64,000 nucleotides of DNA from Rhodothermaceae bacterium bin80 (GTDB lineage: Bacteria > Bacteroidota > Rhodothermia > Rhodothermales > Bin80). The notes beneath the pieces were generated by a model. It was not told the origin of the DNA. It made no database searches and was given only the letters and a program-made list of their open reading frames with translations. Positions 1,552 through 48,647 of the stretch are shown here, one piece after another. The DNA is taken from NCBI GenBank assembly GCA_002238805.1, contig MPNB01000005.1, positions 10,256 to 74,255 of the forward strand, read 5' to 3'. Position 1 is the stretch's first letter; every line of letters begins with the position of its first letter. Position numbers and translations under genes: made by a program.

Positions 1552-1746
1552 ATGGCGACTAAGCGTATGAACGAGAGTTGGCAGCAGGTCTGCAGCCAGA
1601 TAGAGTCCATTTGGAGCGAGGCGGATTTTAATGAGAGAGAGATGAAGAAGGCGCGCGGCAATATGCGCAAGATGGTCCAACTCATTCACGATAAAACCGG
1701 TGAGCCAAGGAGCGAGATCTTTCAAAAGATCAGCGCCATTATTTAA
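1552..1746 (+). CDS. small hypothetical protein
   Basis: The ATG at 1552 gives a 64-aa charged helical product (MATKRMNESWQQV...FQKISAII). There is only ORF evidence. Confidence 0.3.
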   Translation: MATKRMNESWQQVCSQIESIWSEADFNEREMKKARGNMRKMVQLIHDKTGEPRSEIFQKISAII

Positions 1747-1790
1747 GCGCGTCGCAGTGGCAGAGCCCCCAGGTTCGCCGAAAATCTGCG

Positions 1791-3779
1791 ATGGCTTGGT
1801 GCTTCCTTATTTTACTGCTCTCACAGATCCCTCCTACGGATTTGCAGGCGGCCCGTCAAGCGGTCGCTAGTCAGGAGTACGAGCGTGCGGTCCAATTACT
1901 AGACGAGTTTCTCGAATCAGACAGTAACCACATTGAAGGTCACTACCTTCGTGGGATCGCATTACGTGAACGCGGCCGGAGCCCCACACTCAAAAATCGA
2001 CTGCAGCGTCTACTGGCACGCAGTGCGGCTGATTTTGAATTCGTGGTTGCGCAGGATTCTGCATATCAGGATGTTCTTTTTCAGTACGCGATCCTTAAAC
2101 GGTATAAGGAAGACTTGGAGGGGGCAATCACCTTGGGAGAAGCCCAACTGAAGCACCAGCCAGATTTGGATTACGTACTGCCTCGTCTGTTGTCGTTTTA
2201 CTGGCGCTATGTCGTGACGACTGCGCCCGAGAAGGCAAGATTGTGGTTACGGAGTCAATCAGGTCCTCTAGCTCCGCTTTTTGTCGGTCGTGCATACGAA
2301 CGACAGGGCATGTACGATACGGCGGAAGCAATCTATACCGAAGACGAGGATACAGCGGAAACTCCTCTGCTTCTTGCGCAGGCACGATTGAGCTTTGCAC
2401 GAATGCGTCCGGAGATTGGTACAGAAACCATCGAAGAAGCGATTTCCAGCATAGACGCAAAGGTAGATGCGCTGGTCTTCTTCGAAGAAATAAAAACTAT
2501 AGCCAGTCCGGCAGAGGTAGCTGCCTTTGAGCGTATTGAAGAGCTTGAAGAGTACCGCAAGTTTTTCAGGGTGTTTTGGACCAGCCGGGATCCCATGCCG
2601 GCTGCCGCTTATAACGCACGTATGGCTGAACATTACCGTCGGCTGCGTATTGCTGAGCAGAGTTTTCTGTTCAATGGGTTCCGTTCGTGGTTCCGTAGTG
2701 CGTTCACACATGATGAGACCTATTTTCCGGTTACATACCAATTAAGCTCTGATTTCAATGATCGTGGTATCATATTCATGCGCCACGGAGAACCCGACGA
2801 CTATACCGTAGGCGAAGCCAATTCCTGGCTATACAATGACTCGCTGCTAGTTTTCCACTTTGCTCCGACCTGTATGGGCCAGGTATGTGGAGTTACAGAG
2901 CATTTTGTGCCTTCGCCTGTTGGACCAACGTTCGAGCCGGCTCTTGTAGGGCTGGATGCACTGGATGCGGAACGGAAGAGTGCAGACTATCTCGTACATG
3001 GATTGAGCACAGACCGGCATCAATGGTCATCCGATATTCGGCACTGGGAGGTGCCATATGTCGTTGGCGCATTCCGTGGGCTTGACGGACGAACCTTAGT
3101 GGAGATTTACTACGAAGTTCCATTGCACGAAACTGCGCGTGTGCGCGGCCCCGACTCGGTTGTTGTAGAAACCGGTTTCGCGATTCATACCGACGACTGG
3201 GAACGCATCAATTACGCACGGAAACAGTCGCAATATGGCCGTGGAGAGAAGCCCTTTGTCGACCGATTCCAAGTAGACTTATCCACAGATCGGTTCAATT
3301 TTTCACTTCATGCCCGTGTGCTGGATGGCGTACATCTTCGTGCGTACAGATTTGACTATCTCGTGCCCAGATATACAGATTCTGGTTTGCAGCTGAGTGA
3401 TATGCTTTTGGCAGACAGTATAGCTGTGCTTCCGGATGCGGTTGAGCGTGATGAGGTGATCCTACATGTGAATCCATCTGGACAATTCGAAAGATCTGTA
3501 GCTCCGTTCGTGTATTTCGAGATTTACAATTTGACACGGGAACCAGACGGGCAAACAAGATACCGCATTGCATACACACTCACACCTGCCGACGCAGGTC
3601 AGGAGGAGGCAATTACTTTGCAGACGAGCGAACAGCGAAGCACCGATACATCGCCCCTTTCGTATGTAGCCATTGATCTGGGGGAAGCTTCAGACGGAAG
3701 CTATACCATAGAGGTGGAAGTAGAGGACCTTGTAACTGGTATGGCAGTCAGAACCGGACGGGCGCTGCACCTGAAATAG
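1791..3779 (+). CDS. GWxTD-domain protein with N-terminal TPR-like region
   Basis: 662 aa with a signal-like N-terminus and TPR-like helices. The block FFRVFWTSRDP...YNARMAEHYRRLRIAEQSF...NDRGIIFMRHGEPD matches my recollection of the GWxTD family. Confidence 0.65.
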   Translation: MAWCFLILLLSQIPPTDLQAARQAVASQEYERAVQLLDEFLESDSNHIEGHYLRGIALRERGRSPTLKNRLQRLLARSAADFEFVVAQDSAYQDVLFQYAILKRYKEDLEGAITLGEAQLKHQPDLDYVLPRLLSFYWRYVVTTAPEKARLWLRSQSGPLAPLFVGRAYERQGMYDTAEAIYTEDEDTAETPLLLAQARLSFARMRPEIGTETIEEAISSIDAKVDALVFFEEIKTIASPAEVAAFERIEELEEYRKFFRVFWTSRDPMPAAAYNARMAEHYRRLRIAEQSFLFNGFRSWFRSAFTHDETYFPVTYQLSSDFNDRGIIFMRHGEPDDYTVGEANSWLYNDSLLVFHFAPTCMGQVCGVTEHFVPSPVGPTFEPALVGLDALDAERKSADYLVHGLSTDRHQWSSDIRHWEVPYVVGAFRGLDGRTLVEIYYEVPLHETARVRGPDSVVVETGFAIHTDDWERINYARKQSQYGRGEKPFVDRFQVDLSTDRFNFSLHARVLDGVHLRAYRFDYLVPRYTDSGLQLSDMLLADSIAVLPDAVERDEVILHVNPSGQFERSVAPFVYFEIYNLTREPDGQTRYRIAYTLTPADAGQEEAITLQTSEQRSTDTSPLSYVAIDLGEASDGSYTIEVEVEDLVTGMAVRTGRALHLK

Positions 3780-3784
3780 CAAAA

Positions 3785-4780
3785 CTATTTTTTCCGTGCA
3801 ATCACGTATTGGCTGAGTGCATGCATCGCTTGGCGGGCGTCCGAATCCGGGAAGCTCTCCAATAGGGTTTGTGCCTTTTTAACATGGTATTCCATGCGCT
3901 CCTGCGCGTAGGCGAGTCCCCCTGTGGTCTCAACAAAATCGAGAACGATTTTTCGATTATGCTGGCTTTTTTTACCCCTGCGGATAATTTTCAGCATTCG
4001 CCGGCGTTCAGCCGGATTCGCGACTTTTAGGGCGTGTATCAGAGGGAGCGTAACCAGTTTCTTTTGCAGATCAGCTCCTACGGGCTTTCCGATTCCGCCA
4101 GCTCCAAAGTCAAATAGATCATCCCGTATCTGGAAAGCCAGCCCTAACTGTTCGCCGAACTCGCACATATACCGTACACTGGTTTCGTCAGTATTTGCAC
4201 TCAGAGCACCACAGTGGGTACATGCGGCCAAAAGAGATGCTGTTTTGTCCGAAATGATCCGGTAGTATGAATCCTCATCAATATCCAGGTTTCGTGTTCG
4301 CTGCACCTGACGTAGCTCCCCTTCACTCATGCGCTGCACAGCATTGCTAAGAACACGAAGCATGTCAAAATCATCGTGTTCCAGAGCCAGTAATAGACCG
4401 CGGCTCAGAAAATAGTCGCCGAGGAGTACCGCTACTTTGTTGCCCCAGAGCGCATTGATTGAAAAGGATCCACGTCGCTTTTCAGACTCGTCCACGACAT
4501 CATCATGCACAAGCGTAGCCGTATGGAGCAGTTCTACCAGTGCAGCAGCACGGTAACTACGTTCGCTGATGCCACCACAGGTTTTTGCCGCCAAAAGCAC
4601 CAGCAGCGGTCGAACGCGCTTACCTTTTTGACGCAGGATGTACCGCAGAATCAGGTTCAGGAGCTTATGCTCCACGCGCACCGCGGCCCTGAAGTGATGA
4701 TAAAACTCCTTAATGTCATCTTCCACAACCGACTGGATATCTCGCAGCGCGATCGCAGGTTCTGCCTGGTTTGCCACCAT
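3785..4780 (-). CDS. polyprenyl diphosphate synthase (IspB-type, long chain)
   Basis: Both aspartate-rich motifs are present: LVHDDVVDESEKRRG and FQIRDDLFD. 331 aa. Confidence 0.9.
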   Translation of the reverse strand: MVANQAEPAIALRDIQSVVEDDIKEFYHHFRAAVRVEHKLLNLILRYILRQKGKRVRPLLVLLAAKTCGGISERSYRAAALVELLHTATLVHDDVVDESEKRRGSFSINALWGNKVAVLLGDYFLSRGLLLALEHDDFDMLRVLSNAVQRMSEGELRQVQRTRNLDIDEDSYYRIISDKTASLLAACTHCGALSANTDETSVRYMCEFGEQLGLAFQIRDDLFDFGAGGIGKPVGADLQKKLVTLPLIHALKVANPAERRRMLKIIRRGKKSQHNRKIVLDFVETTGGLAYAQERMEYHVKKAQTLLESFPDSDARQAMHALSQYVIARKK

Positions 4781-4833
4781 CCAGTCTGACCTGATTGCAA
4801 GACGGTCGTAAACGATAACTTATTCAATGGTGT

Positions 4834-5058
4834 TCAATTGTGGACCATTGGGGATGAGCTTTGTAGTACTCCCAGGCGTGTTCGGGGCACCGTCGCCTCT
4901 ATCTCTTCCTTGTCTAACCCATGTCGTGGCCTCAAAAGCAGAGAGATCCGAGTTGTATCCCAAAGATGCCACCCATCAGATATCTTGTGAAGAATTCGAT
5001 CCAGCCATTCATGGGCATCAGAATCGTTTGCTACGCATACGTAAATTTCTACGCGCAT
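4834..5058 (-). CDS. small ORF immediately downstream of the AAA ATPase (possible remnant of a partner gene)
   Basis: 74 aa, starting 5 nt after the ATPase stop. The N-terminus RVEIYVCVANDSDAHEWLDRIL weakly resembles the strand-plus-acidic start of Toprim/DUF4276-type partners. Only about 50 nt remain before the ispB-like gene. Confidence 0.35.
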   Translation of the reverse strand: MRVEIYVCVANDSDAHEWLDRILHKISDGWHLWDTTRISLLLRPRHGLDKEEIEATVPRTRLGVLQSSSPMVHN

Positions 5059-5063
5059 CCAAG

Positions 5064-6302
5064 TTATCTCCCCATGTTGCGTACGGAAGCACGTCGGATG
5101 GCCAATACCTCCTCATAGTCTTCACTGAAGACCCCGTCTGGCCAGCTACTCATTTCGCCACAATCGTTTATAGTAATTTTTTGCAACACAGACCCATGCT
5201 CTGGCTCGGTATTAATCCAATATACAGCTACATGATCGTGCGGTAGTCGCCCCTCTGCGATCCAGCGTCGCGCACGAAGCAAAATCATCTCCGAGTGCGT
5301 CTCAATGATCATGGGTCTGGCAGATCCTGACAGATTGCTTAGCAAAAGTTCCGCAACATGAGCATGGGCAGCTGGATGAAGCTCTGCTTCTGGATGTTCA
5401 ATGATGTCAACACCCGGCCCTGCCTGTTTTGCAGTTAGCGCTGTCACTACGACGGGAAGAACCTGCGAAAGCCCTCCACCAGATTGGCCAAGAAGTACAT
5501 CAGAGCCATGTGCCGGTGATCCCACTATTAGATCAAAGTATCTACCCTCGGTTCTAACGTTAAGACTCACTTCGAAAGCTTTGTGATACCACTCCCTAAC
5601 GGAACCTCTCAGATCATCATCTGCAACTAAAATAATCGGTGCCGCTGCTCCCTTTGCTTCATGCACACTTGAGATTGGTTCTTCTATCGTGAAACGTGAT
5701 GACGAAAAACTGCGTGGGCACTCCAAATAGCGAACACCATTGGCCCATTTTCTGATCTCTTCTGCTTGGGCATCAACCCAGTCTGGCAGCTGGTGGGGTT
5801 TCCGCGGCAACAAACCTAGCCAGTTGATCTGGTGCCTACTCGTCTCTCCTCCCGAGACAGATACTTCGTAAGGAGATTGTTGGTCGAGAACTTTTCTTCT
5901 TGCCTCAATCCGATCACTTCCGCTGCTAAAACTCCATTTGAGAATCTGGCGTTCGGATGGCTTGGACGGCCTTAACACATTCTGAACAGTCACCGATAGG
6001 GAAGATTCGCTGCCCTCATGCACAAGTACAGCAGACAGGGACAATCTACCATGTACAGAATGCCTGTTCACCAAATCCACGAAAGTTCTGCCATGGCGAA
6101 CCCCACCCGAACTCATTAATAGTGGTTCGCGGATATCATCCCCTGAAGGAGCTAAGCTGCTTGCCAATAAATGGAACGCTTGGGCTAGTGCTGTTTTACC
6201 AGAATTGTTAGCCCCTACAAGGATGGTCAGAGGGGCAATTTCAACACTTGTATCCCCACGGTAACTCTTATATCGTTTAACACTTAAACTTCGAAGTTCC
6301 AC
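5064..6302 (-). CDS. AAA-family (ABC/SMC-like, AAA_15/21 type) ATPase with DUF3696-like C-terminus
   Basis: Walker A is LTILVGANNSGKTALAQ. The signature-like block is GQSGGGLSQVLPVV and the Walker B/D-loop is VDIIEHPEAELHP. The C-terminus reads IIETHSEMILLRARRWIAEGRLPHDHVAVYWI...WPDGVF. Confidence 0.8.
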   Translation of the reverse strand: MELRSLSVKRYKSYRGDTSVEIAPLTILVGANNSGKTALAQAFHLLASSLAPSGDDIREPLLMSSGGVRHGRTFVDLVNRHSVHGRLSLSAVLVHEGSESSLSVTVQNVLRPSKPSERQILKWSFSSGSDRIEARRKVLDQQSPYEVSVSGGETSRHQINWLGLLPRKPHQLPDWVDAQAEEIRKWANGVRYLECPRSFSSSRFTIEEPISSVHEAKGAAAPIILVADDDLRGSVREWYHKAFEVSLNVRTEGRYFDLIVGSPAHGSDVLLGQSGGGLSQVLPVVVTALTAKQAGPGVDIIEHPEAELHPAAHAHVAELLLSNLSGSARPMIIETHSEMILLRARRWIAEGRLPHDHVAVYWINTEPEHGSVLQKITINDCGEMSSWPDGVFSEDYEEVLAIRRASVRNMGR

Positions 6303-6733
6303 GGCTTTGCACGCTGGCAGCTTGGGTCACCTTGGAGACGATATTTCGCCAATATCGTTCCGTATTCCCATTCTATTCGGCTCTCAAAGATCAGCCCTAT
6401 CTGAGACCATAACAACATTCAGAGAATCTCTGATCAAGCATTGCTGGCCACCAAATCCACACAGATGAGAGTGTTTTGTAAGTATCCGTCCGAGAACACC
6501 AAGATAGCACCCACTTTTTCATTAGACCTATAAAGAGAAGCGAAACTTTGGGCATAGGATTATAGCGGATTGTGCCGAATTACTCCGTGATGTATCTTGG
6601 ATCGGAATCACGCCCTATCTCGTGGATGGCACATATCACAACGAAGGGCGAAGGGTCGGAAAAAGATTGCTGCTTCCCTGAACATTTCTCAGTACGAAGT
6701 ATACGACAATAATAATACCCTTACGCTGCAACA

Positions 6734-7567
6734 GTGGAAAAATCAGTTCAAATATCCATCAGTCCAAAAAAATCAGGACTTGGAATGCTGACAATTCAAG
6801 ATGCCATGGAGCAAGTACGGGATTTCTTTGATTTGCTATCTGATGAAAATAATCAGCATGTAAAGTGGATACTAGAACATGCCCAATTCAATTCGCCTCT
6901 CGTAATTACAGCAAAGCCAATTGATACCCAAACCAATGAGTCGGCCTATGAGGCTATCAACTCCACTGTTAGGGATATCGTTTCGGCGATTACGAATCTT
7001 TCTTCCCCGCAACCTCATCCAGTCAATCTCTCCGGCCGGAAGCTTAAGAAGATTACACAGCTATTACAAAGAAACACTAACGGGATAGAGCGAACCGAGT
7101 GTGATTTTGGAAATGGGATTGAGCAAGTGGTTATTGATCAAGATTTTGCCGAGGTAGGCCTTAAACTGTTGACTCAAAAAAGTGATTTGGGTGACCTACT
7201 TGCGACTTTTCCAGTACAGGGATATGGCTCAATCGCTGGATCTCTCGTTCAGTTGGGTACGCACTACAACAAGCCCGCGATTCAAGTTGAGGAGTTTAAT
7301 ACTGGAAACAAAATATGGTGCCAAGTAGATCAGCTTACGCTAACAAAGTTGAACGAAAAATTACGTGTCAAAGACTTTTGGGAACATCGAGAGGTCCGTG
7401 TACAGGGCATGTTAGATTTCGATGGTATCGGAAAACTTACTCGTATAATTGATGGTACGGTTTCTTACTTGAATCGTAGGCAAGTGCCTCTTGATGAGTT
7501 GCATGACCCTGGCTTTTCTGAAGGACATTCATCTGAAGAATACTTAGAACGGTTGAGGGAAGATTAG
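6734..7567 (+). CDS. uncharacterised 277-aa protein, partner of PIN nuclease (cassette 1)
   Basis: The GTG start at 6734 is supported by N-terminal alignment to its paralogue at 8527-9384. The stop TAG directly abuts the PIN start. No family was recognised. Confidence 0.7.
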   Translation: MEKSVQISISPKKSGLGMLTIQDAMEQVRDFFDLLSDENNQHVKWILEHAQFNSPLVITAKPIDTQTNESAYEAINSTVRDIVSAITNLSSPQPHPVNLSGRKLKKITQLLQRNTNGIERTECDFGNGIEQVVIDQDFAEVGLKLLTQKSDLGDLLATFPVQGYGSIAGSLVQLGTHYNKPAIQVEEFNTGNKIWCQVDQLTLTKLNEKLRVKDFWEHREVRVQGMLDFDGIGKLTRIIDGTVSYLNRRQVPLDELHDPGFSEGHSSEEYLERLRED

Positions 7568-8104
7568 GTGGAGCGCTTACGTAAATACTATTGGGATGCT
7601 TGCGTATGGATTGATCTGATTACCCAATCTGACGAGGACAGATTTAAGAGATGCCTCCATGTACTTTCAGAAGTTGAGAAGCATAAAGCCGAGTTGTGGA
7701 CATCGGCATTTACCTTAGCCGAAGTCTATAAACGCAAATGTGACGGTGACACTGCATCAATGCCCGAAGACCAAGATGATACGTTTGAATCATACTTTGA
7801 ATCAGGCTTGGTTAAACCTATTCTTGTAGACGTGCAGGTAGCAAAAGTATCAAGACGACTTTGTAGAAAATATCCTGGATTACGAAAACCGCAAGATGCA
7901 ATTCATGTAGCGTCTTGCGTTATTGGAAACATTGATGAATTAGGGAACTATATACTTAATTGTACCAATACAGAACGTTTTCCCGATATTGTTTGCAGTA
8001 TAAGCTACGATTGGCTCTTTTTGATCAATCGAATTTTGGGGAGGTTCCCTGGATATCAAACAGATCCTTTGGGTTCGGGAGTTGGGGTGGCTCGCAGATG
8101 CTAA
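7568..8104 (+). CDS. PIN-domain protein (cassette 1), with aberrant C-terminal region and possibly inactive
   Basis: KYYWDACVWIDLI (Asp), FTLAEVYK (Glu) and KPQDAIHVASC (Asp) are present. The HTFD motif of the paralogue is GNYI here. The ORF reads on into the antisense of the paralogue's 3' end. Confidence 0.6.
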   Translation: MERLRKYYWDACVWIDLITQSDEDRFKRCLHVLSEVEKHKAELWTSAFTLAEVYKRKCDGDTASMPEDQDDTFESYFESGLVKPILVDVQVAKVSRRLCRKYPGLRKPQDAIHVASCVIGNIDELGNYILNCTNTERFPDIVCSISYDWLFLINRILGRFPGYQTDPLGSGVGVARRC

Positions 8105-8546
8105 GCCTTTTTCCGTTGAAGCATATCAAATGATCGTCGAAACGTGTTAAATGGTTTGAGTCAAATGTGTGTAGTACATCCACGTCATAAACCAAGCACG
8201 AGGCGACATGCACTGCATCTTGGGGCTTCTTCAATTTGGGATACTCCCTGAGCAGTCGCCGTGCTACCATACCCACGTTTTGAGTTACCTGAAGCACCTC
8301 GACATTATTTCTTAAGTAATCTTCAAAGTCTTGGTCTTTGTTCTCTGGAAGCTGTACTCTGTCCCCATGGCATTTCACTTTATAAACCTCTGCCAGCGTG
8401 AACGCAGAAGTGTAAAGTTCTGCGTTCTTGTTGCCAACAAGATTTATTACATGTAAGCAGCGATCCACTCTGTCTTGATTCTCTCTATTAATGAGATCAA
8501 TCCAAAGGCACGCATCCCAATAGTACTTAATAGGCTGATCCGCCAT
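8025..8546 (-). CDS. PIN-domain nuclease (cassette 2)
   Basis: The ATG at 8546 gives MADQPIKYYWDACLWIDLI. All four acidic positions are present: YYWD, TLAEV, PQDAVH and LHTFD. It overlaps the upstream gene by 20 nt. Confidence 0.8.
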   Translation of the reverse strand: MADQPIKYYWDACLWIDLINRENQDRVDRCLHVINLVGNKNAELYTSAFTLAEVYKVKCHGDRVQLPENKDQDFEDYLRNNVEVLQVTQNVGMVARRLLREYPKLKKPQDAVHVASCLVYDVDVLHTFDSNHLTRFDDHLICFNGKRLSICEPPQLPNPKDLFDIQGTSPKFD

Positions 8547-9384
8547 AATCACCCTCACGGAGTTTGTCTAAGTACTCTCTGGCGGATAAGCCTCCTGTAA
8601 AGTCTGGGTCAAAAAGATCTTCAAGAGAAACGTCACTTTCTTCGACTATTTCCACATAACCATCTATCACCTTCTCCAAATTCCCGTCTTTCTTATAGAA
8701 TATCTTGCCCTGAACACTTACGCGCTTTTCGCTCCATACGACACAGGCACTCATTTTTTCCCATTTCTGCAATTCTGCGGCAGCCAATTGGCACCAAATA
8801 GACCTTTTAAGATTGCTAGCCCAAATTTTCACTGACGGCCGATTATCGTGCGTGCCTATGTTCATGAGCGTACCCTCAACAGATCCCAATTCTGTCCGTT
8901 TTCGGTTTTCATACATGCAGCTGTAAATAGGGTCGGGTGGCAACGCCAGTATGCGCAGACTACTTTTTGCGCTTTCGGGCTTGATCTCTAGGGACTGTCC
9001 AATGTGCGGTAGTCCGCAAGTCGTGCTGGCAATGCCATTCAGGTTTCTTTCTAGCATTCTCTTGGTCGCGTCACGGACGACTTTGGGTGTATCTGGATTC
9101 CATGTTTGCCCAGACGAAATGTCGCGGTAAAGGGTGTGGAAGGCACGGGCATTCGGCTCCACGATATCATAATCAATGTCTAACGTTGTTGCGTTATGAG
9201 GCACGCACTCCATGGTTAACGGATTCTGCCTAGCGACTGTCTTAATGTTAAACAAGACCTTCTTGTTGTTTCCCCCCTTGAGTATTTTGAAGAAATCCGC
9301 TGCTTGGTCAAGTGCATCGTGAACATCAAGTACGCCTTTCCGGCCTGTAGACGCCTCAACCGAAATTCTAAAAGGTTCGTTCAT
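8527..9384 (-). CDS. uncharacterised 285-aa protein, partner of PIN nuclease (cassette 2)
   Basis: The ATG at 9384 (MNEPFRISVEAS...) aligns with the N-terminus of the 6734-7567 product. Several blocks are shared (see findings). Confidence 0.7.
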   Translation of the reverse strand: MNEPFRISVEASTGRKGVLDVHDALDQAADFFKILKGGNNKKVLFNIKTVARQNPLTMECVPHNATTLDIDYDIVEPNARAFHTLYRDISSGQTWNPDTPKVVRDATKRMLERNLNGIASTTCGLPHIGQSLEIKPESAKSSLRILALPPDPIYSCMYENRKRTELGSVEGTLMNIGTHDNRPSVKIWASNLKRSIWCQLAAAELQKWEKMSACVVWSEKRVSVQGKIFYKKDGNLEKVIDGYVEIVEESDVSLEDLFDPDFTGGLSAREYLDKLREGDYGGSAY

Positions 9385-9557
9385 TAAGTCACCTGTTCGT
9401 TGCTCTGGCAAGTATACGTATTCTGTTATTCTATGATGCAAATAGTCCACCTGAAGATACAACACCTAGGACAATTCCCTAAGGTTTGATTCCTACGAGC
9501 ACCAGTGGTACAGCTGGCACTCCTCAACCTTGACGAATAACATTCAGTAGGTCACGC

Positions 9558-9794
9558 TCATAGTAGGGAATACCGCTTGACATTTCCTTCTCCAGAGACT
9601 TCATCATCTTCTTCGATCAAACACTTCTGTTCAATTACCTGCATAATCGCTCTTGTCTCTCCCTTTAATCGAGCGATGTCTTCACCCTTGTGCTTCCACA
9701 CTTTAACCCCTGCACCTGCTGTATACAGCTTACGAGCAGTCTTCTGTCTTTCTTCTGCTACTTGGAGTTCGAGTGCAGTGATCTTGTACTCCAC
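9558..9794 (-). CDS. small coiled-coil-like hypothetical protein
   Basis: 78-aa charged helical ORF, same strand as and upstream of cassette 2. There is only ORF evidence. Confidence 0.3.
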   Translation of the reverse strand: MEYKITALELQVAEERQKTARKLYTAGAGVKVWKHKGEDIARLKGETRAIMQVIEQKCLIEEDDEVSGEGNVKRYSLL

Positions 9795-10032
9795 TTCTAA
9801 CTCATCAACGGAAACGCCTTAAAGATTTCGAAACCACCCGTCCCCCCAGCTGAGACACTACGGGAATTACCATTCGATGGTAATTGTCTGTGATTCTGAG
9901 CTCCTTTGAAGAATACTTCTACGAAAAATGCTGTACTTGTCTTGGTTGAATAAACGGATTGTTGTTAAATAGAGCCGAAGTGCGACTAATCACCATGGTG
10001 AACCTGAAGGCAAACGAACTATTATTCCCCCT

Positions 10033-10046
10033 CCCCCCCCCCCCCC
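10033..10046 (+). repeat. homopolymeric C14 tract (C5-T-C14 overall from 10027)
   Basis: Read directly: ttattccccctccccccccccccccaaaatttt, just 5' of the methyltransferase remnant. Confidence 0.9.
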
Positions 10047-10048
10047 AA

Positions 10049-10503
10049 AATTTTCACCCCAATACTATCTGGACAGGGTATAACCTTTATGTAATGCGTG
10101 GCATGAACAGTGCCCCCGTCGATCTAATCTATCTTTATCCCCATTCAATAGCAAAGCCAACCACGCCGCTCCTATTTGTAGTAAAGCTACGGGGGCAACT
10201 CTTAAAGATACTTGGACATTATCAGACATAGATACTGAATGGCATGATGTGATCGAAAAGCCTTATCCAGCCTCTGACTTGTGATCATGGCGGCCATGAC
10301 GGATAGCGATGAGTCCTATCTCTCCTACATGGCAATCCGGTTGCCGGAAATGAAGCGCTTAATGAAGGAATTTGCTTCCATTTGTCTCCACTGTGATCCC
10401 ACCTTAAGCCATTATTTGAAGCTGGCCATGGATGTCATATTTGGTTGAACAAGTTTTCAATATGAAATTCTCTGGCATTATGGGCGCGGAATACTCACCT
10501 CTT
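10049..10503 (+). pseudogene. decayed N4/N6 DNA methyltransferase (PF01555-like)
   Basis: Frame 1 reads HPNTIWTGYNLYVMRGMNSAPVDLIYLYPHS, so the DPPY/F motif is mutated to YPHS. A shifted frame reads SYLSYMAIRLPEMKRLMKEFASICLHCDPTLSHYLKLAMDVIFG*TSFQYEILWHYGRG. There is a frameshift and an in-frame TGA, and the gene is truncated at about 10503. Confidence 0.7.
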
Positions 10504-10504
10504 A

Positions 10505-10553
10505 AGAATCTGGCGTCCGATGACTAGGACTGCCTTAGCACATTCTGAATAAT
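10505..10553 (-). pseudogene. decayed fragment of a second copy of the AAA ATPase gene
   Basis: By hand alignment it matches 5941-5990 at 42 of 50 positions with one 1-nt gap. The minus-strand translation IIQNVLRQS*SS aligns with VTVQNVLRPSKPS of the intact gene. Confidence 0.6.
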
Positions 10554-10623
10554 TCCCGAAAGCTTGTTCATGCGTTCATGGGCGTACTAGACAGTGACGT
10601 TACGACTTACAGACTCACAAAAA

Positions 10624-11640
10624 TCAGCCAAAGCCATAGCTACTGCGTCGCAGCAGGAGCAGGAAGAACGGTACACCGCAGAGGGCGGTTACAATGCCAA
10701 CCGGCAGCTGTGCTCCTGGCAGGAGGGCTCTCGCTACAAGATCCGCCCATAAAAGGAATACCGCGCCAGCGATAAAGCTTGCTGGCAGCACGCGTCGATG
10801 AGTTACGCCGACTATGGAACGCACGGCGTGGGGAACGATCAGACCAACGAATCCAATCGCTCCGCTTGCAGCAACGATAGATCCGGTAACCAGTGAAGCC
10901 AGGACAATCAGGATTCGCTTTATAGATTCAACCGGGACTCCCAGTGAGTGAGCAGATTCATCACCGGTTAGCATCCCATCCAAAGGGCGTGCCAACACAA
11001 TTAACGAGACAAAACCTATCAACACGGCTATTGAAGGCCAGATCAGTGCACTCCAGGTTGCCAGATGGAGTGACCCCAGCAGCCAAAAAAGCACTGACCT
11101 TAGTTTATCGGGCTCCGGCGACGATAGGGTAATAAAGGAAGAAAGGGCACCCATGAGTGATGCAACAGCGACCCCGGCCAGGAGCAGACGTGTAACCGAT
11201 AAATGCCCCCGACCACCTGCAACACTGTACACGATGAGAATTGCACACAAGCCTCCTGCAAACGCTGCCACCGGCATAGAAACCGCCTTAGAGATCAAGG
11301 GGGGTAGGAAACCCAGGTAAAACAGTGATGCGCCTGCTGTCGCCCCGCTAGAAATCCCCAGGATATACGGTTCTGCCAAAGGATTACGTACAAGCGTTTG
11401 CATCGCTGTACCGATAATCCCTAACCCTCCCCCGACAATAAGGGCAAGCAAGGCACGAGGGAGGCGAAGCTGCCACACGATGCGATCTGCAATGGGATCT
11501 GGAGCAATGCCGTATCCGAACGTAATATGATGCCACAGCACAGACAGTGCTTCGGAAAATGATACCTCATCTCCCGCGCTCACGGAGATGATTACACTAA
11601 AAAATGCCAATACCAGTAACCCAATTATCCAGCGATTCAT
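10624..11640 (-). CDS. FecCD-family ABC transporter permease (iron-siderophore/cobalamin type)
   Basis: 338 aa and polytopic. Typical FecCD/BtuC blocks are present: LRLPRALLALIVGGGLG and GAIGFVGLIVPH. Confidence 0.9.
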   Translation of the reverse strand: MNRWIIGLLVLAFFSVIISVSAGDEVSFSEALSVLWHHITFGYGIAPDPIADRIVWQLRLPRALLALIVGGGLGIIGTAMQTLVRNPLAEPYILGISSGATAGASLFYLGFLPPLISKAVSMPVAAFAGGLCAILIVYSVAGGRGHLSVTRLLLAGVAVASLMGALSSFITLSSPEPDKLRSVLFWLLGSLHLATWSALIWPSIAVLIGFVSLIVLARPLDGMLTGDESAHSLGVPVESIKRILIVLASLVTGSIVAASGAIGFVGLIVPHAVRSIVGVTHRRVLPASFIAGAVFLLWADLVARALLPGAQLPVGIVTALCGVPFFLLLLRRSSYGFG

Positions 11641-12560
11641 GGATTAATCACCGCGTCAGGATGCAAAACTTGTGCAAGAGTCCATGCCCCGGACACAAGA
11701 CGCGGTCCAGGCCGTAAATAGAGATCGGGGTACAGTCCATAGATTCGGCCGGATACTACCGCGGGTACAATATCCCAGGTTGAGTGATGAGAAATAAGTT
11801 TCGTGACATCGTACTGTGGGCCGAATGAGCCCACAATTACGTCAGGCCCTGAGCTTAACACGAATTCGTCAGTGAGTACAGGGGCACGTGTTGTCAATGT
11901 TTGTGTGATGCTGTAACCACCGGCTAAATCAATCATATCGTGAATGTAACTTCCTTGCCCAAAAGCATAGAGTGTTACGTCATTGATCAAGAACAGTGTA
12001 CGCGGTCGCTCAGATAAGTCGGCAGTGAGCACCGCCAGTTGCGCGAGCGAGTCTTCGAGTTCAATTGCCCGGCGTGTCGCTGCCTCTGAGGTGCCGAGTA
12101 GGTCCCCCAGGGTTCGAATCGCCCGGGGTACATCCGGGAGCGTATTCACCGCAACGAAATACACCGGAATGCCTATCGATGAGAAGATGTCAGCCTCCTT
12201 CGGGCTGTTTACTTGCTCACTTGCAAGTACTAGTTCTGGGTCAAGAGCGACAATAGCTTCAAAATCTGTTGGAATCATGCCATATTTTGGCAATGAATCA
12301 ACGGCTGGAGGATAGTCATCGAATGTTGTTACCCCCACTATTTTTGATCCAGCCCCTGCAGCAAATGCAAGCTCCGTCACACTTGGGGCAAGCGTAGCGA
12401 TCCTCTCTATTGTGGGAGGCAATACCACAGTACGCCCCAAATCATCCTCGACAGTCCGTCCCTCAGGAAAATTGGATGAACAGCCGATTAAGAGTAGGCA
12501 AAGCAGGCAGACTTGACGCATGGATTGGGATGGAGGATGTGGCACTGGTGAATAGGTCAC
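11637..12560 (-). CDS. periplasmic substrate-binding protein (BtuF/FhuD-like, cluster A)
   Basis: It overlaps the permease start by 4 nt. A lipoprotein-like signal is present (LLIGCSS). The block RIATLAPSVTELAFAAGAG..VGVT is typical. The start may instead be at 12521. Confidence 0.85.
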   Translation of the reverse strand: MTYSPVPHPPSQSMRQVCLLCLLLIGCSSNFPEGRTVEDDLGRTVVLPPTIERIATLAPSVTELAFAAGAGSKIVGVTTFDDYPPAVDSLPKYGMIPTDFEAIVALDPELVLASEQVNSPKEADIFSSIGIPVYFVAVNTLPDVPRAIRTLGDLLGTSEAATRRAIELEDSLAQLAVLTADLSERPRTLFLINDVTLYAFGQGSYIHDMIDLAGGYSITQTLTTRAPVLTDEFVLSSGPDVIVGSFGPQYDVTKLISHHSTWDIVPAVVSGRIYGLYPDLYLRPGPRLVSGAWTLAQVLHPDAVINP

Positions 12561-44912: not shown

Positions 44913-46916
44913 CTATTCCACATCAACATCTTCTCCACACCGTTGGCTCATTTTCCTGCAGCGTGTGATGATACTTTCACGGCTTGCATGTACGTTAATC
45001 ACGTAACTCTCGTGCCTCGGGATTTGCACAAATCTGCTTCCAGGTCCAGCAATTGGAGGCGATTCCGCAGGGAAAATATCTATATTCTTCCTGTTGCCCG
45101 ACAGCCGTTTATAATTCCCCTCTGGATCTATGTCCAAAAGGGCCGCAGTAACGCTCAAAAGGACCCTTCTGTATGATCTCTCTCCCTTCCACTCGCCAGA
45201 GTTCATGCGCCAACGAGGACCTTTCAAAGGCCTATCCTCCCAAGGCCAGCATTTCAGTGCCCATTCGGCAAGCTCCTCGCCACGTTCAACCAAATCGTTC
45301 TCCTTCCAGTCCGCATGCTGTTCAGAAAGTTGTCGCGTAAGCGTAACACTACTCTCCTTATAGAGCTCACGCTTCTCGTTATAGCCTCTATTACTAATTT
45401 CTGAATTGAAGTCCAGTCCAACCAGTGTAAGGTTTACAAGACTGTTTAAGTAGTTGTCGCGTATTTCGTCTACGTCATCCCCCAAGTAGTTTTCCCATTC
45501 CTTACCTAGTGTTCTCGGCATTATGTGCTCCAGTGACAAATCCTCAATCCTCGGTTGAGCTGGTCCTTTCCATATTTCTGAGTTGATAGTATATAGGATG
45601 GCCTTGGCTGCACCCGAAGCTTTACTTCCGTACGCTTTTCTCTTCTTTATGCCCTCCCTGACTTCTTCAGCACTGGGCACCGCGATTCGTGATCGCCGAA
45701 GCTTTCGAATTTCTCCAGTCCAGTGGTGACTGAAGTCTTCGGTATACCGAGGGCCCTTGCCATGCGCAAGTCTTGCAGCCTCAGTGTTGAGACCATTTGT
45801 CGGCTTACCTGCAAGCCATAGCCGCGTTAGCCAAGTACTGATTGCCTCTAAGGTTTCAATAAGTTCTTTTGCAGTTGCCCCAGTGCTATCAGGTCTTGTG
45901 GCATCATCCAGCAAACGGAGTATGAGTGGCCGAAGAACATCAATTCCAAGGCCCCGAAAATATTTCAGTAATTGATTGATGCGCTTATTTTTATACTTGT
46001 CGCCCCTACCAGTTATTATCCCATAGAGCTCCGCCAATCTGGCAAGGTCCTTGCACAACCAGATTCTGTCGTTCTCTGTATTCGAAACGTGCCACCATCT
46101 CCGCAAGTTTTCGTAGGTCCGCGTTTTGCCGCTATTTTCCCCCGTCTTCCACCGAAGAAAATCCCGAAGAAATTCGTCTATGTACTTGGGTTCTTGGACA
46201 GCTCCCAAATATGTCTCGAGTACGCACCAGTAACCTCGGTATACTTCGTCCTGGGCTTTCCTATCCAGCCCCATTAGGAGCCAATTTTTGGCCTTTTCTC
46301 CTTCTGTCAGTGGAACACCCGTTGCATTCAGGCTCTCGAAAATTTGCTGCGGATCGTCAGATGGACCACACCTGAAGCTTATAACTTGAAAGCGATTCAG
46401 TCCACCCATCAACCGAGATGGACCAACATCAGTCGTTGCTTTTCGTAATATTTTCCAAGCCGCAGTGACTTTACCTTCACCTCTGGGTTGGCCCTCAAGT
46501 ATCCGTCTATACTCCTCGTCATCCTCGCCCTGCAGCTCCATCGTTATTGATGAGTCCAAACTGTTTTTCAACAGAATATCCCAGATCTTCTGGGCATTCC
46601 ATTGCCCGGCTTTGCCATTTGGTCCCAACTCCCTCGCAATGCAGATTAATAGAATACTGATGGTTGCGAGACGTTGCTGTCCATCAACAACATGGTCTAA
46701 GGCAGGTGTGCCCGGCGGAGTACTTTCGGAATAGGTTATGAGCGTACCACCGAAATGTTGGACATTCTCATCTCTTACCTGCGCAATTGCTTTCAAATCT
46801 TGGACCAAGCGATCAATCGTTTTCTTGTCCCAACTATACCTGCGTTGCCACCTGGGCACAGAATATCGGACATTTCCTTGAAGCAATTTGAGAAAGCTAA
46901 CTATTTGGGCACGCAT
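44913..46916 (-). CDS. DUF262/DUF1524 (GmrSD-family) nuclease
   Basis: The ATG at 46916 is the likely start. The DUF262 blocks are YSVPRWQRRYSW and VVDGQQRLATI. The DUF1524 His-Me finger is LEHIMPRTLG...NSLVNLTLVGLDFNSEISN. An extra domain of about 120 aa sits at the C-terminus. Confidence 0.85.
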   Translation of the reverse strand: MRAQIVSFLKLLQGNVRYSVPRWQRRYSWDKKTIDRLVQDLKAIAQVRDENVQHFGGTLITYSESTPPGTPALDHVVDGQQRLATISILLICIARELGPNGKAGQWNAQKIWDILLKNSLDSSITMELQGEDDEEYRRILEGQPRGEGKVTAAWKILRKATTDVGPSRLMGGLNRFQVISFRCGPSDDPQQIFESLNATGVPLTEGEKAKNWLLMGLDRKAQDEVYRGYWCVLETYLGAVQEPKYIDEFLRDFLRWKTGENSGKTRTYENLRRWWHVSNTENDRIWLCKDLARLAELYGIITGRGDKYKNKRINQLLKYFRGLGIDVLRPLILRLLDDATRPDSTGATAKELIETLEAISTWLTRLWLAGKPTNGLNTEAARLAHGKGPRYTEDFSHHWTGEIRKLRRSRIAVPSAEEVREGIKKRKAYGSKASGAAKAILYTINSEIWKGPAQPRIEDLSLEHIMPRTLGKEWENYLGDDVDEIRDNYLNSLVNLTLVGLDFNSEISNRGYNEKRELYKESSVTLTRQLSEQHADWKENDLVERGEELAEWALKCWPWEDRPLKGPRWRMNSGEWKGERSYRRVLLSVTAALLDIDPEGNYKRLSGNRKNIDIFPAESPPIAGPGSRFVQIPRHESYVINVHASRESIITRCRKMSQRCGEDVDVE

Positions 46917-47085
46917 TTCATGTTGATCTGGTTGTTGTAAACAAAGCAATTCATTCCGAGCAACCACATATGGTAAGAAGCAACCACAACAACCTTCTTG
47001 CTGCTGAATAAGGTGATACAACCAAGTGCTTCAATGCACTCGGGAAACTAAGCATTTGCGACCTGATCTTGGTCCAACGGAGAAA

Positions 47086-47745
47086 TCAGCCCCTCAAGCT
47101 GAAAGCTTCCTGTCGCTTGAAGGCATAGATCGATCGATTCAGTACCTGTGTGTTGAATACACCAAGTTTACAGAGCGTATCAAAATCGCGAACTTTGAGA
47201 CCCGTGACTTTCGTGAAGAGGTCTGGCTCGACGTTACGAATCACATCTACAAGACTTTCCTCCCTGTAGTCCGTTAAGTACATGAAAATTGGAATTCTGG
47301 CGAGAAATCGCAAAAGCGCTTCTTCAATCTTCTTGCGGTGTTTAGCCATTTCTCGCTTTTCCCTGCTAACAGCTGACTTTCGCCTACCCTCCGCCCTGGC
47401 CTTCTTCAACGACTTTTCTGCGGTTACAATTTTTGTTGCGTGCTTGCGCAGGGCACGAAAAGCTTCAATGTTTTCCAGAGATCGCAGGAGTTCCTCATCG
47501 TTAAGGATACCCTCCAGTACATTACGACTGAGATCTATCATGCGCGGGGATTGCCACCGCTTAGCCAACATGGCTGAACCAACACCAGATGTCGCCATAT
47601 CCATCAAATCTGTCTCATTTAACTCAGTCAGTTTCCCATCATCATAGGCAAGTATGGGCAGGAAATTCAAAAACTCACGCACTTCAGACCTGGCACTGCC
47701 CTCGCCTTTCGCGTTGGCCTGTTGCGCACAGAATCCGTACACCAT
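47086..47745 (-). CDS. 219-aa helical hypothetical protein (possibly a gene remnant)
   Basis: The ORF is bounded by an in-frame TAA six codons upstream of the ATG. It has a Lys/Arg-rich coiled segment followed by IPIFMYLTDYREESLVDVI...FTKVTGLKVRDFDTLCKLGVFN. The family was not securely recognised. Confidence 0.45.
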   Translation of the reverse strand: MVYGFCAQQANAKGEGSARSEVREFLNFLPILAYDDGKLTELNETDLMDMATSGVGSAMLAKRWQSPRMIDLSRNVLEGILNDEELLRSLENIEAFRALRKHATKIVTAEKSLKKARAEGRRKSAVSREKREMAKHRKKIEEALLRFLARIPIFMYLTDYREESLVDVIRNVEPDLFTKVTGLKVRDFDTLCKLGVFNTQVLNRSIYAFKRQEAFSLRG

Positions 47746-48029
47746 TTCCAGCGTGCGATTTTACGCAAAGTCGTATATGTAGGCTTCCGACTTGGTCACC
47801 TCTTGCCTGTTGGATTGTCATCCTTCAAACGCGTCCAAGGTGACTGAATCCGGAATGCATCCTGAAATGCGCGGCACTACAAGCTACATTAATTTGTAGC
47901 AAAATTAACAACCCCACGCGTATTTGATTAACTTGATTATCCTTGCCATGATTCGTCGCGTATACTCACGAGCTTGAATCCACTGGCAGAAAAAAATTAT
48001 TGGAATATATCCGAGCGAGAGAGTAACTC

Positions 48030-48647
48030 ATGAATGATGGACTTTCCCAGCACGAAGCTAGACTGCTTACCGGTCAAGAAGCGTTTCACGGGCAGAAAGT
48101 CCTGCCGCCGCTCCAACTGATTGACTTTTGGCGCTGGTCGGGCTCCATGCTTTCAGATAACACCACTCGAGGAGTTCTTGCTGAGTTTCTCGTTGCGGCG
48201 GCACTGGGACTTCACAAAAAGGTAAGGAGGGCATGGGATGAGTGTGATATTCGCACGACATCTAATACCTTAATAGAAGTGAAATCTGCAGCCTATAATC
48301 AGACATGGAAACAGTATAAATCTTCTACGATCCGGTTTGGGGTAGCACCTCACAGAAGCTGGAACGCGGAGACTGGAAAGTTCAGAGAAGGAAACAGGCG
48401 GTGGGCTGACATCTATGTTTTCTGCGTGTTTAAGGGAAAGAACTCTCTTGACTGCCTTGATATGAGTGAATGGGACTTTTATGTCATTGCTACCAGAGTC
48501 TTGGATCAAGAAGTTCCTCAGCATAAAACGATTGGTTTGAATTCTCTTAAAAAGCTCTCTCCACACAAATGCAGCTTCGAAGTTCTGCAAAAGGTGATTC
48601 TGGATGTCGAAAAGGAGGTAAAGGAGAATAGGCCCTCGTCTTTATAA
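48030..48647 (+). CDS. PD-(D/E)xK-like nuclease-fold protein, orphan
   Basis: The helix GVLAEFLVAAALG is followed by WDECDI....LIEVKSA (D...ExK spacing). 205 aa. Confidence 0.5.
   Translation: MNDGLSQHEARLLTGQEAFHGQKVLPPLQLIDFWRWSGSMLSDNTTRGVLAEFLVAAALGLHKKVRRAWDECDIRTTSNTLIEVKSAAYNQTWKQYKSSTIRFGVAPHRSWNAETGKFREGNRRWADIYVFCVFKGKNSLDCLDMSEWDFYVIATRVLDQEVPQHKTIGLNSLKKLSPHKCSFEVLQKVILDVEKEVKENRPSSL

Follow-up and report, generated by a model that had tools for sequence, protein, structure and literature searches.

A VapC-type nuclease gene and its large partner gene in Rhodothermaceae bacterium bin80: a probable toxin–antitoxin module, often carried by IS1595-family elements

Among the described systems, those closest to the gene pair reported here are the VapBC toxin–antitoxin systems, including Rickettsia felis VapBC2, Shigella VapBC/MvpAT, the M. 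tuberculosis VapBCs and FitAB. In the NetFlax network, PIN toxins occur with a wide range of unrelated antitoxin domains, PanA and RHH_6 among them, and such swaps are common (Ernits et al., 2023, PMC10440598). In Tn3-family transposons, toxin–antitoxin pairs, PIN toxins among them, are located beside the transposition genes, and a stabilising effect on the element has been proposed for them (Lima-Mendez et al., 2020, PMC7157771). The pair reported here consists of a gene for a PIN-domain nuclease and a partner gene directly upstream of it, and was found as two cassettes in a stretch of 64,000 nucleotides (nt) of Rhodothermaceae bacterium bin80 (contig MPNB01000005.1, positions 10,256–74,255). 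The whole stretch is called the window, and all coordinates below are window coordinates unless a related locus, denoted by L and a number, is named. Cassette 1 (partner 1 and PIN1) and cassette 2 (partner 2 and PIN2) lie on opposite strands (Table 1). We conclude that the pair is probably a VapC-type (type II-like) toxin–antitoxin module with a new, large antitoxin, that it is often cargo of IS1595-family insertion sequences (IS), and that cassette 2 was inserted into PIN1.

The pair resembles VapBC in the VapC fold with its four acidic residues, in the upstream gene that overlaps the toxin gene, and in being a mobile, multi-copy module in which the toxin decays before the partner. In contrast, the partners in the window are 3–4 times larger than VapB, contain no AbrB, RHH, HTH or Phd domain and belong to no known antitoxin family, and the partner modelled here folds with high confidence into three domains, one of them an OB-like barrel. 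The Tn3-family pairs are alike in that a toxin–antitoxin-like pair is carried inside a transposon next to transposition genes. They belong, however, to another transposon family with another mechanism and have classical small antitoxins, whereas the pair reported here is cargo downstream of a DDE-type IS1595 transposase and has a large novel partner. The main text of the NetFlax study (PMC10440598) contains neither a mention of an OB fold nor a description of a partner of this kind. In the literature searched, no paper links the IS1595 family to a PIN module, and no description of the partner–PIN module, of IS1595 passenger genes or of OB-containing antitoxins was found. The partner family, its pairing with this VapC subfamily and its recurrent carriage by IS1595 elements are undescribed in the libraries and literature searched.

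An earlier note on this DNA had described two coupled modules of a large protein and a PIN nuclease. The coordinates of the open reading frames (ORFs), the GTG codon immediately after the TAG codon of partner 1, and the 20-nt overlap in cassette 2 were all confirmed. The two large proteins are paralogous, as had been claimed, and are aligned from end to end with 29% identity (E 1e-40). The PIN1 and PIN2 proteins are 51% identical (E 3e-49), and both match Pfam PF01850; around the YYWDAC codons, 36 of 41 nt are identical between both PIN genes. In cassette 1, the GTG start of a 178-aa ORF (7568–8104, + strand) abuts the TAG codon of partner 1 with a gap of 0 nt. In cassette 2, AGGTGA is located 6 nt upstream of the ATG codon of partner 2, and PIN2 is assigned to start at ATG 8546, the alternative GTG 8558 upstream being judged less likely. 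Of the two modules, cassette 2 is the only intact one in the window. The 178-aa ORF is a truncated chimera and not a whole PIN gene, and partner 1 is an orphan.

The partner gene and the PIN gene are linked throughout the family. At every distinct locus with readable downstream sequence, a PIN gene follows the partner gene directly, and four of these PIN genes are decayed. In a genome scan, 14 of the 17 loci gave a PIN match directly downstream by phmmer; L005 is counted among the 14, yet its PIN gene has an in-frame stop codon. At L018 a PIN remnant with stop codons is present, and at L013 the PIN gene is deleted after 9 codons. The contig of L015 ends 319 nt past the partner gene, and its DNA homology to the window reaches into PIN1 up to 7814. 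L019 (JAJEFL010000079.1, 4494–5527) is rearranged, with a partial partner of the cassette-1 type whose N-terminus is disrupted and no PIN gene directly after it. The next ORF of this Rhodothermales locus looks by eye like the N-terminus of an unrelated transposase, and a PIN 3' fragment is located at the contig start. After the close homologues P0002 and P0004, the next gene is in each case a PIN gene that overlaps the partner gene by 17 nt, and in 18 other loci the partner and PIN genes are between −26 and +31 nt apart. Six distant partner homologues, 22–33% identical to those of the window, also have a PIN gene next (6/6). In the search from the PIN side, a gene of 260–288 aa without a Pfam match was found just upstream in three of three look-ups (Methylobacterium sp. 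Leaf85, Mesorhizobium and a metagenome lineage). Homologues are systematically followed by this PIN subtype, and the genes overlap or abut. The possibility that a third small gene is conserved upstream of the partner was considered and rejected; such a gene is shared among close relatives only.

The two genes also diverge together. Partner and PIN identities co-vary over 19 pairs (Pearson r 0.88), and none of 2000 Mantel permutations reached this r. Their decay is asymmetric. The partner is intact and the PIN gene is broken in cassette 1 of the window and at L018, L005 and L013; the partner was kept after PIN decay in these four lineages. The DNA relatives of partner 1 are L018 (79% nt identity) and L014–L016 (70–71%), and the ratio of non-synonymous to synonymous substitution rates between partner 1 and its orthologues is 0.20–0.28, which indicates purifying selection. 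Decay of the PIN gene beside an intact, selected partner is what a poison–antidote pair predicts. On this evidence the earlier idea of a non-canonical toxin–antitoxin module is retained in its toxin–antitoxin part; its anti-phage part is weighed below.

The partner belongs to a sizeable family. In an exhaustive profile search, 427 cluster representatives reached E ≤ 0.001 and 291 reached the stricter E ≤ 1e-10, corresponding to at least 427 clusters at 50% identity, and nearly all members are 270–290 aa in length. A metagenome scan added only two further loci. The statement that the large proteins fit no known family holds: the partners of the window matched nothing in Pfam, NCBIfam, PADLOC or PHROG below E 0.001, and neither the best PHROG match (E 0.006, function unknown) nor the best PDB sequence match (E 0.07) is significant. 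It is also correct that, at 277–285 aa, they are far larger than VapB, and that they match no DNA-binding family. Among 121 family members, no recurring domain, antitoxin or DNA-binding family was detected, and the only matches were two unrelated single-member chance matches. The profile of these 121 partners gave nothing significant against the PDB. In PADLOC-DB 2.0.0, partner 1, partner 2 and PIN2 matched no family at E ≤ 1, and PIN1 gave a chance-level match only (E 0.035). Where the sources give a name for family members, it is 'hypothetical protein' only.

The AlphaFold2 model of partner 2, built on the family alignment, has a predicted local distance difference test score (pLDDT) of 93 and a predicted template-modelling score (pTM) of 0.68. 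It consists of an N-terminal β-α-β-β-α domain (residues 1–90), a small middle domain (101–158), a β-barrel (163–246) and two short C-terminal helices. In the Foldseek search against the PDB, the barrel alone matches, and the targets are OB folds of the LysRS/AspRS anticodon-binding domain, Teb1, Stn1 and the Rim1 SSB. These matches are weak and generic (E about 1e-3, target template-modelling (TM) score 0.5–0.59 over ~100 residues), without sequence-level support. The comparison with viral models gave full-length matches to three uncharacterised phage proteins, with E 1e-9 to 4e-8 and TM scores of only 0.29–0.36. The label DUF6575 of one of these phage structural matches was followed as a lead and dropped as too weak (TM 0.29, without sequence support). 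The net charge of the partner is about −8; the OB-like barrel is near neutral (+1.2), and the tail has about −3.7. Tail residues 261–280 are among the most conserved segments of the family, with the acidic–aromatic consensus D-P-D-F-T-G-G-L-x3-E-Y-L-x2-L-R-E-G. The conserved acidic C-terminal tail of the earlier note is confirmed. This tail is encoded at the overlap with the PIN start and is likely to be the PIN-binding element.

The PIN is an ordinary VapC relative. The acidic quartet of PIN2 (D11, E53, D110 and D129) is invariant or nearly so across 73 homologues. The AlphaFold2 model of PIN2 has a pLDDT of 90.6, and its best PDB structural matches are VapC toxins, namely R. felis VapC2, several M. 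tuberculosis VapCs, Shigella VapC and FitB, with target TM scores of 0.64–0.77 and sequence identities of only 12–20%. The PIN nuclease fold expected from the sequence is thus found in PIN2 as a VapC-like model with four acidic residues. In RefSeq, these PINs are named 'type II toxin-antitoxin system VapC family toxin'.

The ISNwi1 subgroup of the IS1595 family has passenger genes, the repeat consensus ggnnatTAT and 8-bp duplications. To our knowledge, most IS1595-family elements have no partner or PIN genes. At many of the loci related to the window, an IS1595 transposase gene is located directly upstream of the partner gene (L007–L012, L017, L020/L021, L029, L033, L035 and L040). The upstream transposases match PF12762 and PF12760; the N-terminal zinc ribbon and DDE_Tnp_IS1595 were seen in those of L009, L020, L029, L033 and L035, and that of L040 is a 117-aa fragment with a weak match. 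At L001, the IS1595 transposase gene lies downstream of the module on the opposite strand. L029 is plasmid pMOC1 from Methylobacterium oryzae CBMB20, on which the three genes bear the annotation 'IS1595 family transposase / hypothetical protein / VapC family toxin', and the transposase–partner–PIN trio is also found at the metagenome loci L033, L035 and L040. In one Rhodobacteraceae metagenome-assembled genome (MAG), five copies of a 2,931-bp element are 99.9–100% identical, and the order in the element is the repeat GGGAATTATATACCAAAGTCACA, the IS1595 transposase, a 58-aa ORF, the partner, the PIN and the repeat again. Inverted-repeat pairs were found at L007–L012, L017, L020, L030 and L033; the terminal repeats of related elements are 23–25 bp and begin with GGnnAtTATATAC. 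Target duplications of 8 bp, A/T-rich and different for each copy, were present in 8 of the 8 copies checked: five in the Rhodobacteraceae MAG, one of them with nested insertions, and those of Limibaculum, Parasphingorhabdus and Methylobacterium sp. Leaf85.

The copy with nested insertions is L007 (CATOSB010000009.1, 1692–9039). Among the insertions, a 1,601-bp element occurs twice, and one of its copies interrupts the transposase gene. The partner and PIN genes are intact, and the outer repeats and the TAAAAATA duplication are kept.

In the window, the end of such an element is located in PIN1. The product of ORF 7568–8104 was aligned within a set of 11 subfamily PINs. The LHTFD motif, which contains the fourth acidic residue, is present in 10 of the 10 other PINs and absent from this product, which diverges from the family after residue ~125 and covers three of the four acidic positions. 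The earlier statement that the shared PIN blocks cover the acidic positions is accordingly valid in full for PIN2 and for three of four positions in PIN1. The DNA homology of cassette 1 to L014–L016 (Rhodothermales/Bacteroidetes MAGs) spans from 6726 and ends at 7941, and the last ~53 codons of the ORF arise by read-through of an IS end and of the 3' end of PIN2 in antisense. The sequence GGGAACTATATACTTAATTGTACC at 7943 starts 1–2 nt past the PIN1 breakpoint and is oriented into cassette 2. It has one mismatch in 13 to the inverted repeat GGGAATTATATAC that brackets the transposase–partner–PIN elements of L007–L012 and L017. It is also similar to the repeats GGCGATTATATACTTGACGCACC and GGCAATTATATACTTGACAAACCC, the repeats of L020, L030 and L033 being among those resembled. 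The distance from the repeat at 7943 to the PIN2 stop codon is 82 nt, and the equivalent end in L009 is 101 nt past the PIN stop codon.

The missing 3' part of PIN1 was searched for in the whole window using the C-terminal 44–48 residues of the L016 and L014 PINs. The second-best match after PIN2 is 9801–9869 (LINGNALKISKPPVPP...), with E 2e-4 and 5e-4, and the next match has E ≥ 0.06. It is on the same strand as PIN1. Judging from this match, 9801–9869 is probably the 3' remnant of PIN1. The two PIN1 pieces would be parted by ~1.86 kb containing cassette 2, with ~16 codons lost at the right-hand junction.

The two cassettes have different relatives. L001 is the closest relative of cassette 2, with 86% nt identity over window 8081–9426 and 80% identity between the PIN2 and L001 PIN proteins. 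The flanks of L001 match window 46204–48227, so that the relative occupies a different genomic site in a related genome. In a related Rhodothermales genome (OZ242302.1), both cassette lineages are present as L003 and L018, and they are unlinked. The earlier note had regarded the module as duplicated. Local duplication was rejected, because the copies share only 29% identity, the lineages are unlinked elsewhere and the junction is at an IS end. Cassettes 1 and 2 are two old lineages made neighbours by insertion, and what had been read as duplication is better explained by IS1595-family delivery of cassette 2 into PIN1.

At L001, ~10 kb (1660–11712) are located between the matches to window 46204–47867 and 47877–48227, and this stretch contains T5orf172, Eco57I-like, partner–PIN and IS1595 transposase genes. 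A 137-nt segment, window 47844–47981, is repeated at L001 11712–11848. The stretch resembles an island with a repeated attachment-like sequence at its borders, and a tRNA is absent there.

In the mechanism that we propose, the PIN would act as a toxin, and the partner would neutralise it by direct binding, probably via the C-terminal tail. The overlapping or abutting genes would allow the partner and PIN to be made together by translational coupling. As a passenger of an IS1595 element (left repeat, transposase, partner, PIN, right repeat), the module would penalise loss of the element and so play an addiction role. In the window, cassette 1 would have been resident when an IS1595-type element with cassette 2 as its cargo entered PIN1 at nt 7942/7943 and so inactivated the gene. 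The transposase gene, the far inverted repeat and ~16 codons of PIN1 would later have been deleted, leaving the insertion immobile. What the analysis shows is the gene pair with its conservation, the VapC fold, the IS structures at other loci, and the breakpoint and repeat in the window; the order of events is what we infer.

Several points weigh against this reading. The partner is large, acidic and confidently folded and has no recognisable DNA-binding domain, unlike the labile VapB antitoxins. Many homologues are located outside any IS: at L023–L028 the module lies between the enolase and OYE reductase genes, and at L022 and L034 in islands of small genes, with no IS nearby in either case. 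At L002/L004, from a long-read MAG, the partner is frameshifted and the PIN is intact. This single case may be a sequencing error; otherwise it is a counter-example to the decay pattern of a toxin–antitoxin pair. Related loci share with IS1595-family IS the zinc-ribbon and DDE_Tnp_IS1595 transposase, the terminal repeats and the 8-bp duplications, whereas the window retains a single repeat of this type (7943), its copy being an immobilised remnant. No second repeat is present, no transposase remnant was found in the window by tblastn, and the 8-bp sequence ATGAATTA preceding 7943 has no second copy near 9800 that would mark a target duplication. With one repeat, no transposase and no duplication, the insertion history is drawn from the breakpoint, from the repeat and from a remnant that is short and has an E-value of about 1e-4.

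An unlikely alternative is that the pair acts in anti-phage abortive infection. The partner would then be a sensor, for example with the OB-like domain recognising phage nucleic acid or protein, that restrains the PIN until infection, and the PIN would cleave tRNA or rRNA. This explanation overlaps the toxin–antitoxin one and differs from it in biological role alone. It would suit a big, multi-domain partner, as sensor antitoxins tend to be, and it is consistent with some of the neighbours, namely the ATPase matching PDC-M55A and the sub-threshold DNA-methylase ORF in the same island of the window, T5orf172, Eco57I or DEAD-helicase genes at L001 and L040, and an HNH gene at L032. The remote full-length structural matches to the three uncharacterised phage proteins point in the same direction, since the one labelled DUF6575 bears the name of a domain that occurs in a validated E. 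coli defence system (PMC9519451). However, the TM scores of these matches are low, no partner homologue was found among 50,697 phage genomes, neither protein matches any PADLOC model, and IS elements or housekeeping genes (enolase, OYE) surround many of the loci. The anti-phage module proposed in the earlier note is not upheld for these reasons. Of the defence-type neighbours that it mentioned, the one ATPase stands as a PADLOC candidate, and otherwise there is only the short ORF with the sub-threshold methylase match.

It is very improbable that the partner and PIN are accessory transposition genes of an IS1595-type element, acting in strand processing, target choice or transposition control. 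The operons are tight, with 18–21 nt between the transposase and partner genes in L020, L029 and L033, the trio is kept within inverted repeats across several alphaproteobacterial genera and metagenomes, and toxin–antitoxin pairs within the transposition module of Tn3-family transposons provide a precedent (PMC7157771). Nevertheless, the intact pair occurs without a transposase in L003, L006, L022, L023–L028, L032 and L034, and the L012 and L017 elements retain the pair despite varying spacing and other cargo. Persistence of the pair without a transposase in many genomes thus makes a transposition role unlikely. The least probable of the explanations considered is a two-subunit nuclease, in which the partner would be an RNA- or DNA-binding specificity subunit that aids the PIN via the OB-like domain. 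Strict linkage and co-divergence of both genes would be expected of such subunits, and the barrel does match OB folds; yet those matches are generic, the barrel is nearly neutral within an acidic protein, and the partner persists after PIN loss in four lineages, which is unexpected for a subunit left without its nuclease.

The features around the cassettes are listed in Table 1. Both cassettes lie in a low-GC island (~5000–10500) with 42–46% GC, compared with 50–53% in the flanks. The same island contains a 412-aa AAA_15/AAA_21/DUF3696 ATPase gene (5064–6302, − strand), whose product gives a full-length match to the PADLOC candidate-defence model PDC-M55A (E 9e-71) and a weaker one to NsnB; for this ATPase, a partner gene was not identified. 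The 78-aa ORF 9558–9794 has no Pfam match and no relative in any fetched locus. An RNA component, as in type III-like systems, was considered and rejected; neither an Rfam family nor a tRNA was found in the region.

Table 1. Features of the two cassettes and the junctions between them (window coordinates)
Feature	Coordinates	Strand	Description
Partner 1	6734–7567	+	277 aa, intact; cassette-1 lineage, presumed resident
PIN1 5' part	7568–7942	+	Codons 1 to ~125; truncated toxin gene, pseudogene; Pfam PIN E 1e-7
IS1595-family terminal inverted repeat, PIN-proximal end	7943–7966	+	GGGAACTATATACTTAATTGTACC; outer end at 7943
PIN2	8025–8546	−	173 aa, intact, VapC-type; Pfam PIN E 5e-12
Partner 2	8527–9384	−	285 aa, intact; overlaps PIN2 by 20 nt
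Filler, cassette 2 to PIN1 remnant	9427–9800		Contains 78-aa ORF 9558–9794 (−)
Probable PIN1 3' remnant	9801–9869	+	LINGNALKISKPPVPPAETLREL; frame runs on to TGA 9891–9893

Other observations were made around the cassettes. ORF 10281–10448 (+ strand), which has ICLHCDPTLSHYLK, gives a sub-threshold match to the PF01555 DNA methylase (E 0.003; 18.1 bits, below the cut-off of 26.7). ORF 9959–10231 (+ strand) has no Pfam match; in our own reading, its DLIYLYP string recalls a DPPF-type motif. The two ORFs are separated by a run of ~16 C near 10030–10047, and 9959–10448 (+ strand) is possibly composed of remnants of an N6/N4 DNA methyltransferase gene. A direct repeat of ~62 nt with ~80% identity (5938–5999 and 10502–10562, 4.56 kb apart) brackets both cassettes. 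One copy is within the ATPase gene, and the other is just before the end of the FecCD gene.

The favoured explanation, a VapC-type toxin–antitoxin module often carried by IS1595 elements, defines a sizeable unnamed family as the obligate partner of one VapC subfamily, whereas in public annotation this VapC appears as an orphan toxin whose neighbour is a 'hypothetical protein'. It would provide a new antitoxin architecture and a simple IS family that routinely carries a toxin module, with a bearing on IS persistence and on the spread of toxin–antitoxin genes. A further step is possible but doubtful: the pair may be a dedicated retention or control module of an IS1595 subgroup, which kills or arrests cells losing the element, and its antitoxin, of an undescribed three-domain fold, may use the OB-like barrel to couple toxin release to a nucleic-acid signal (excised or phage DNA or RNA). 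If this is true, the partner would represent a new antitoxin class, and the pair would be the first toxin–antitoxin module built into a simple IS family. The window itself would be a record of an incoming toxin-bearing element that disabled a resident homologous toxin.

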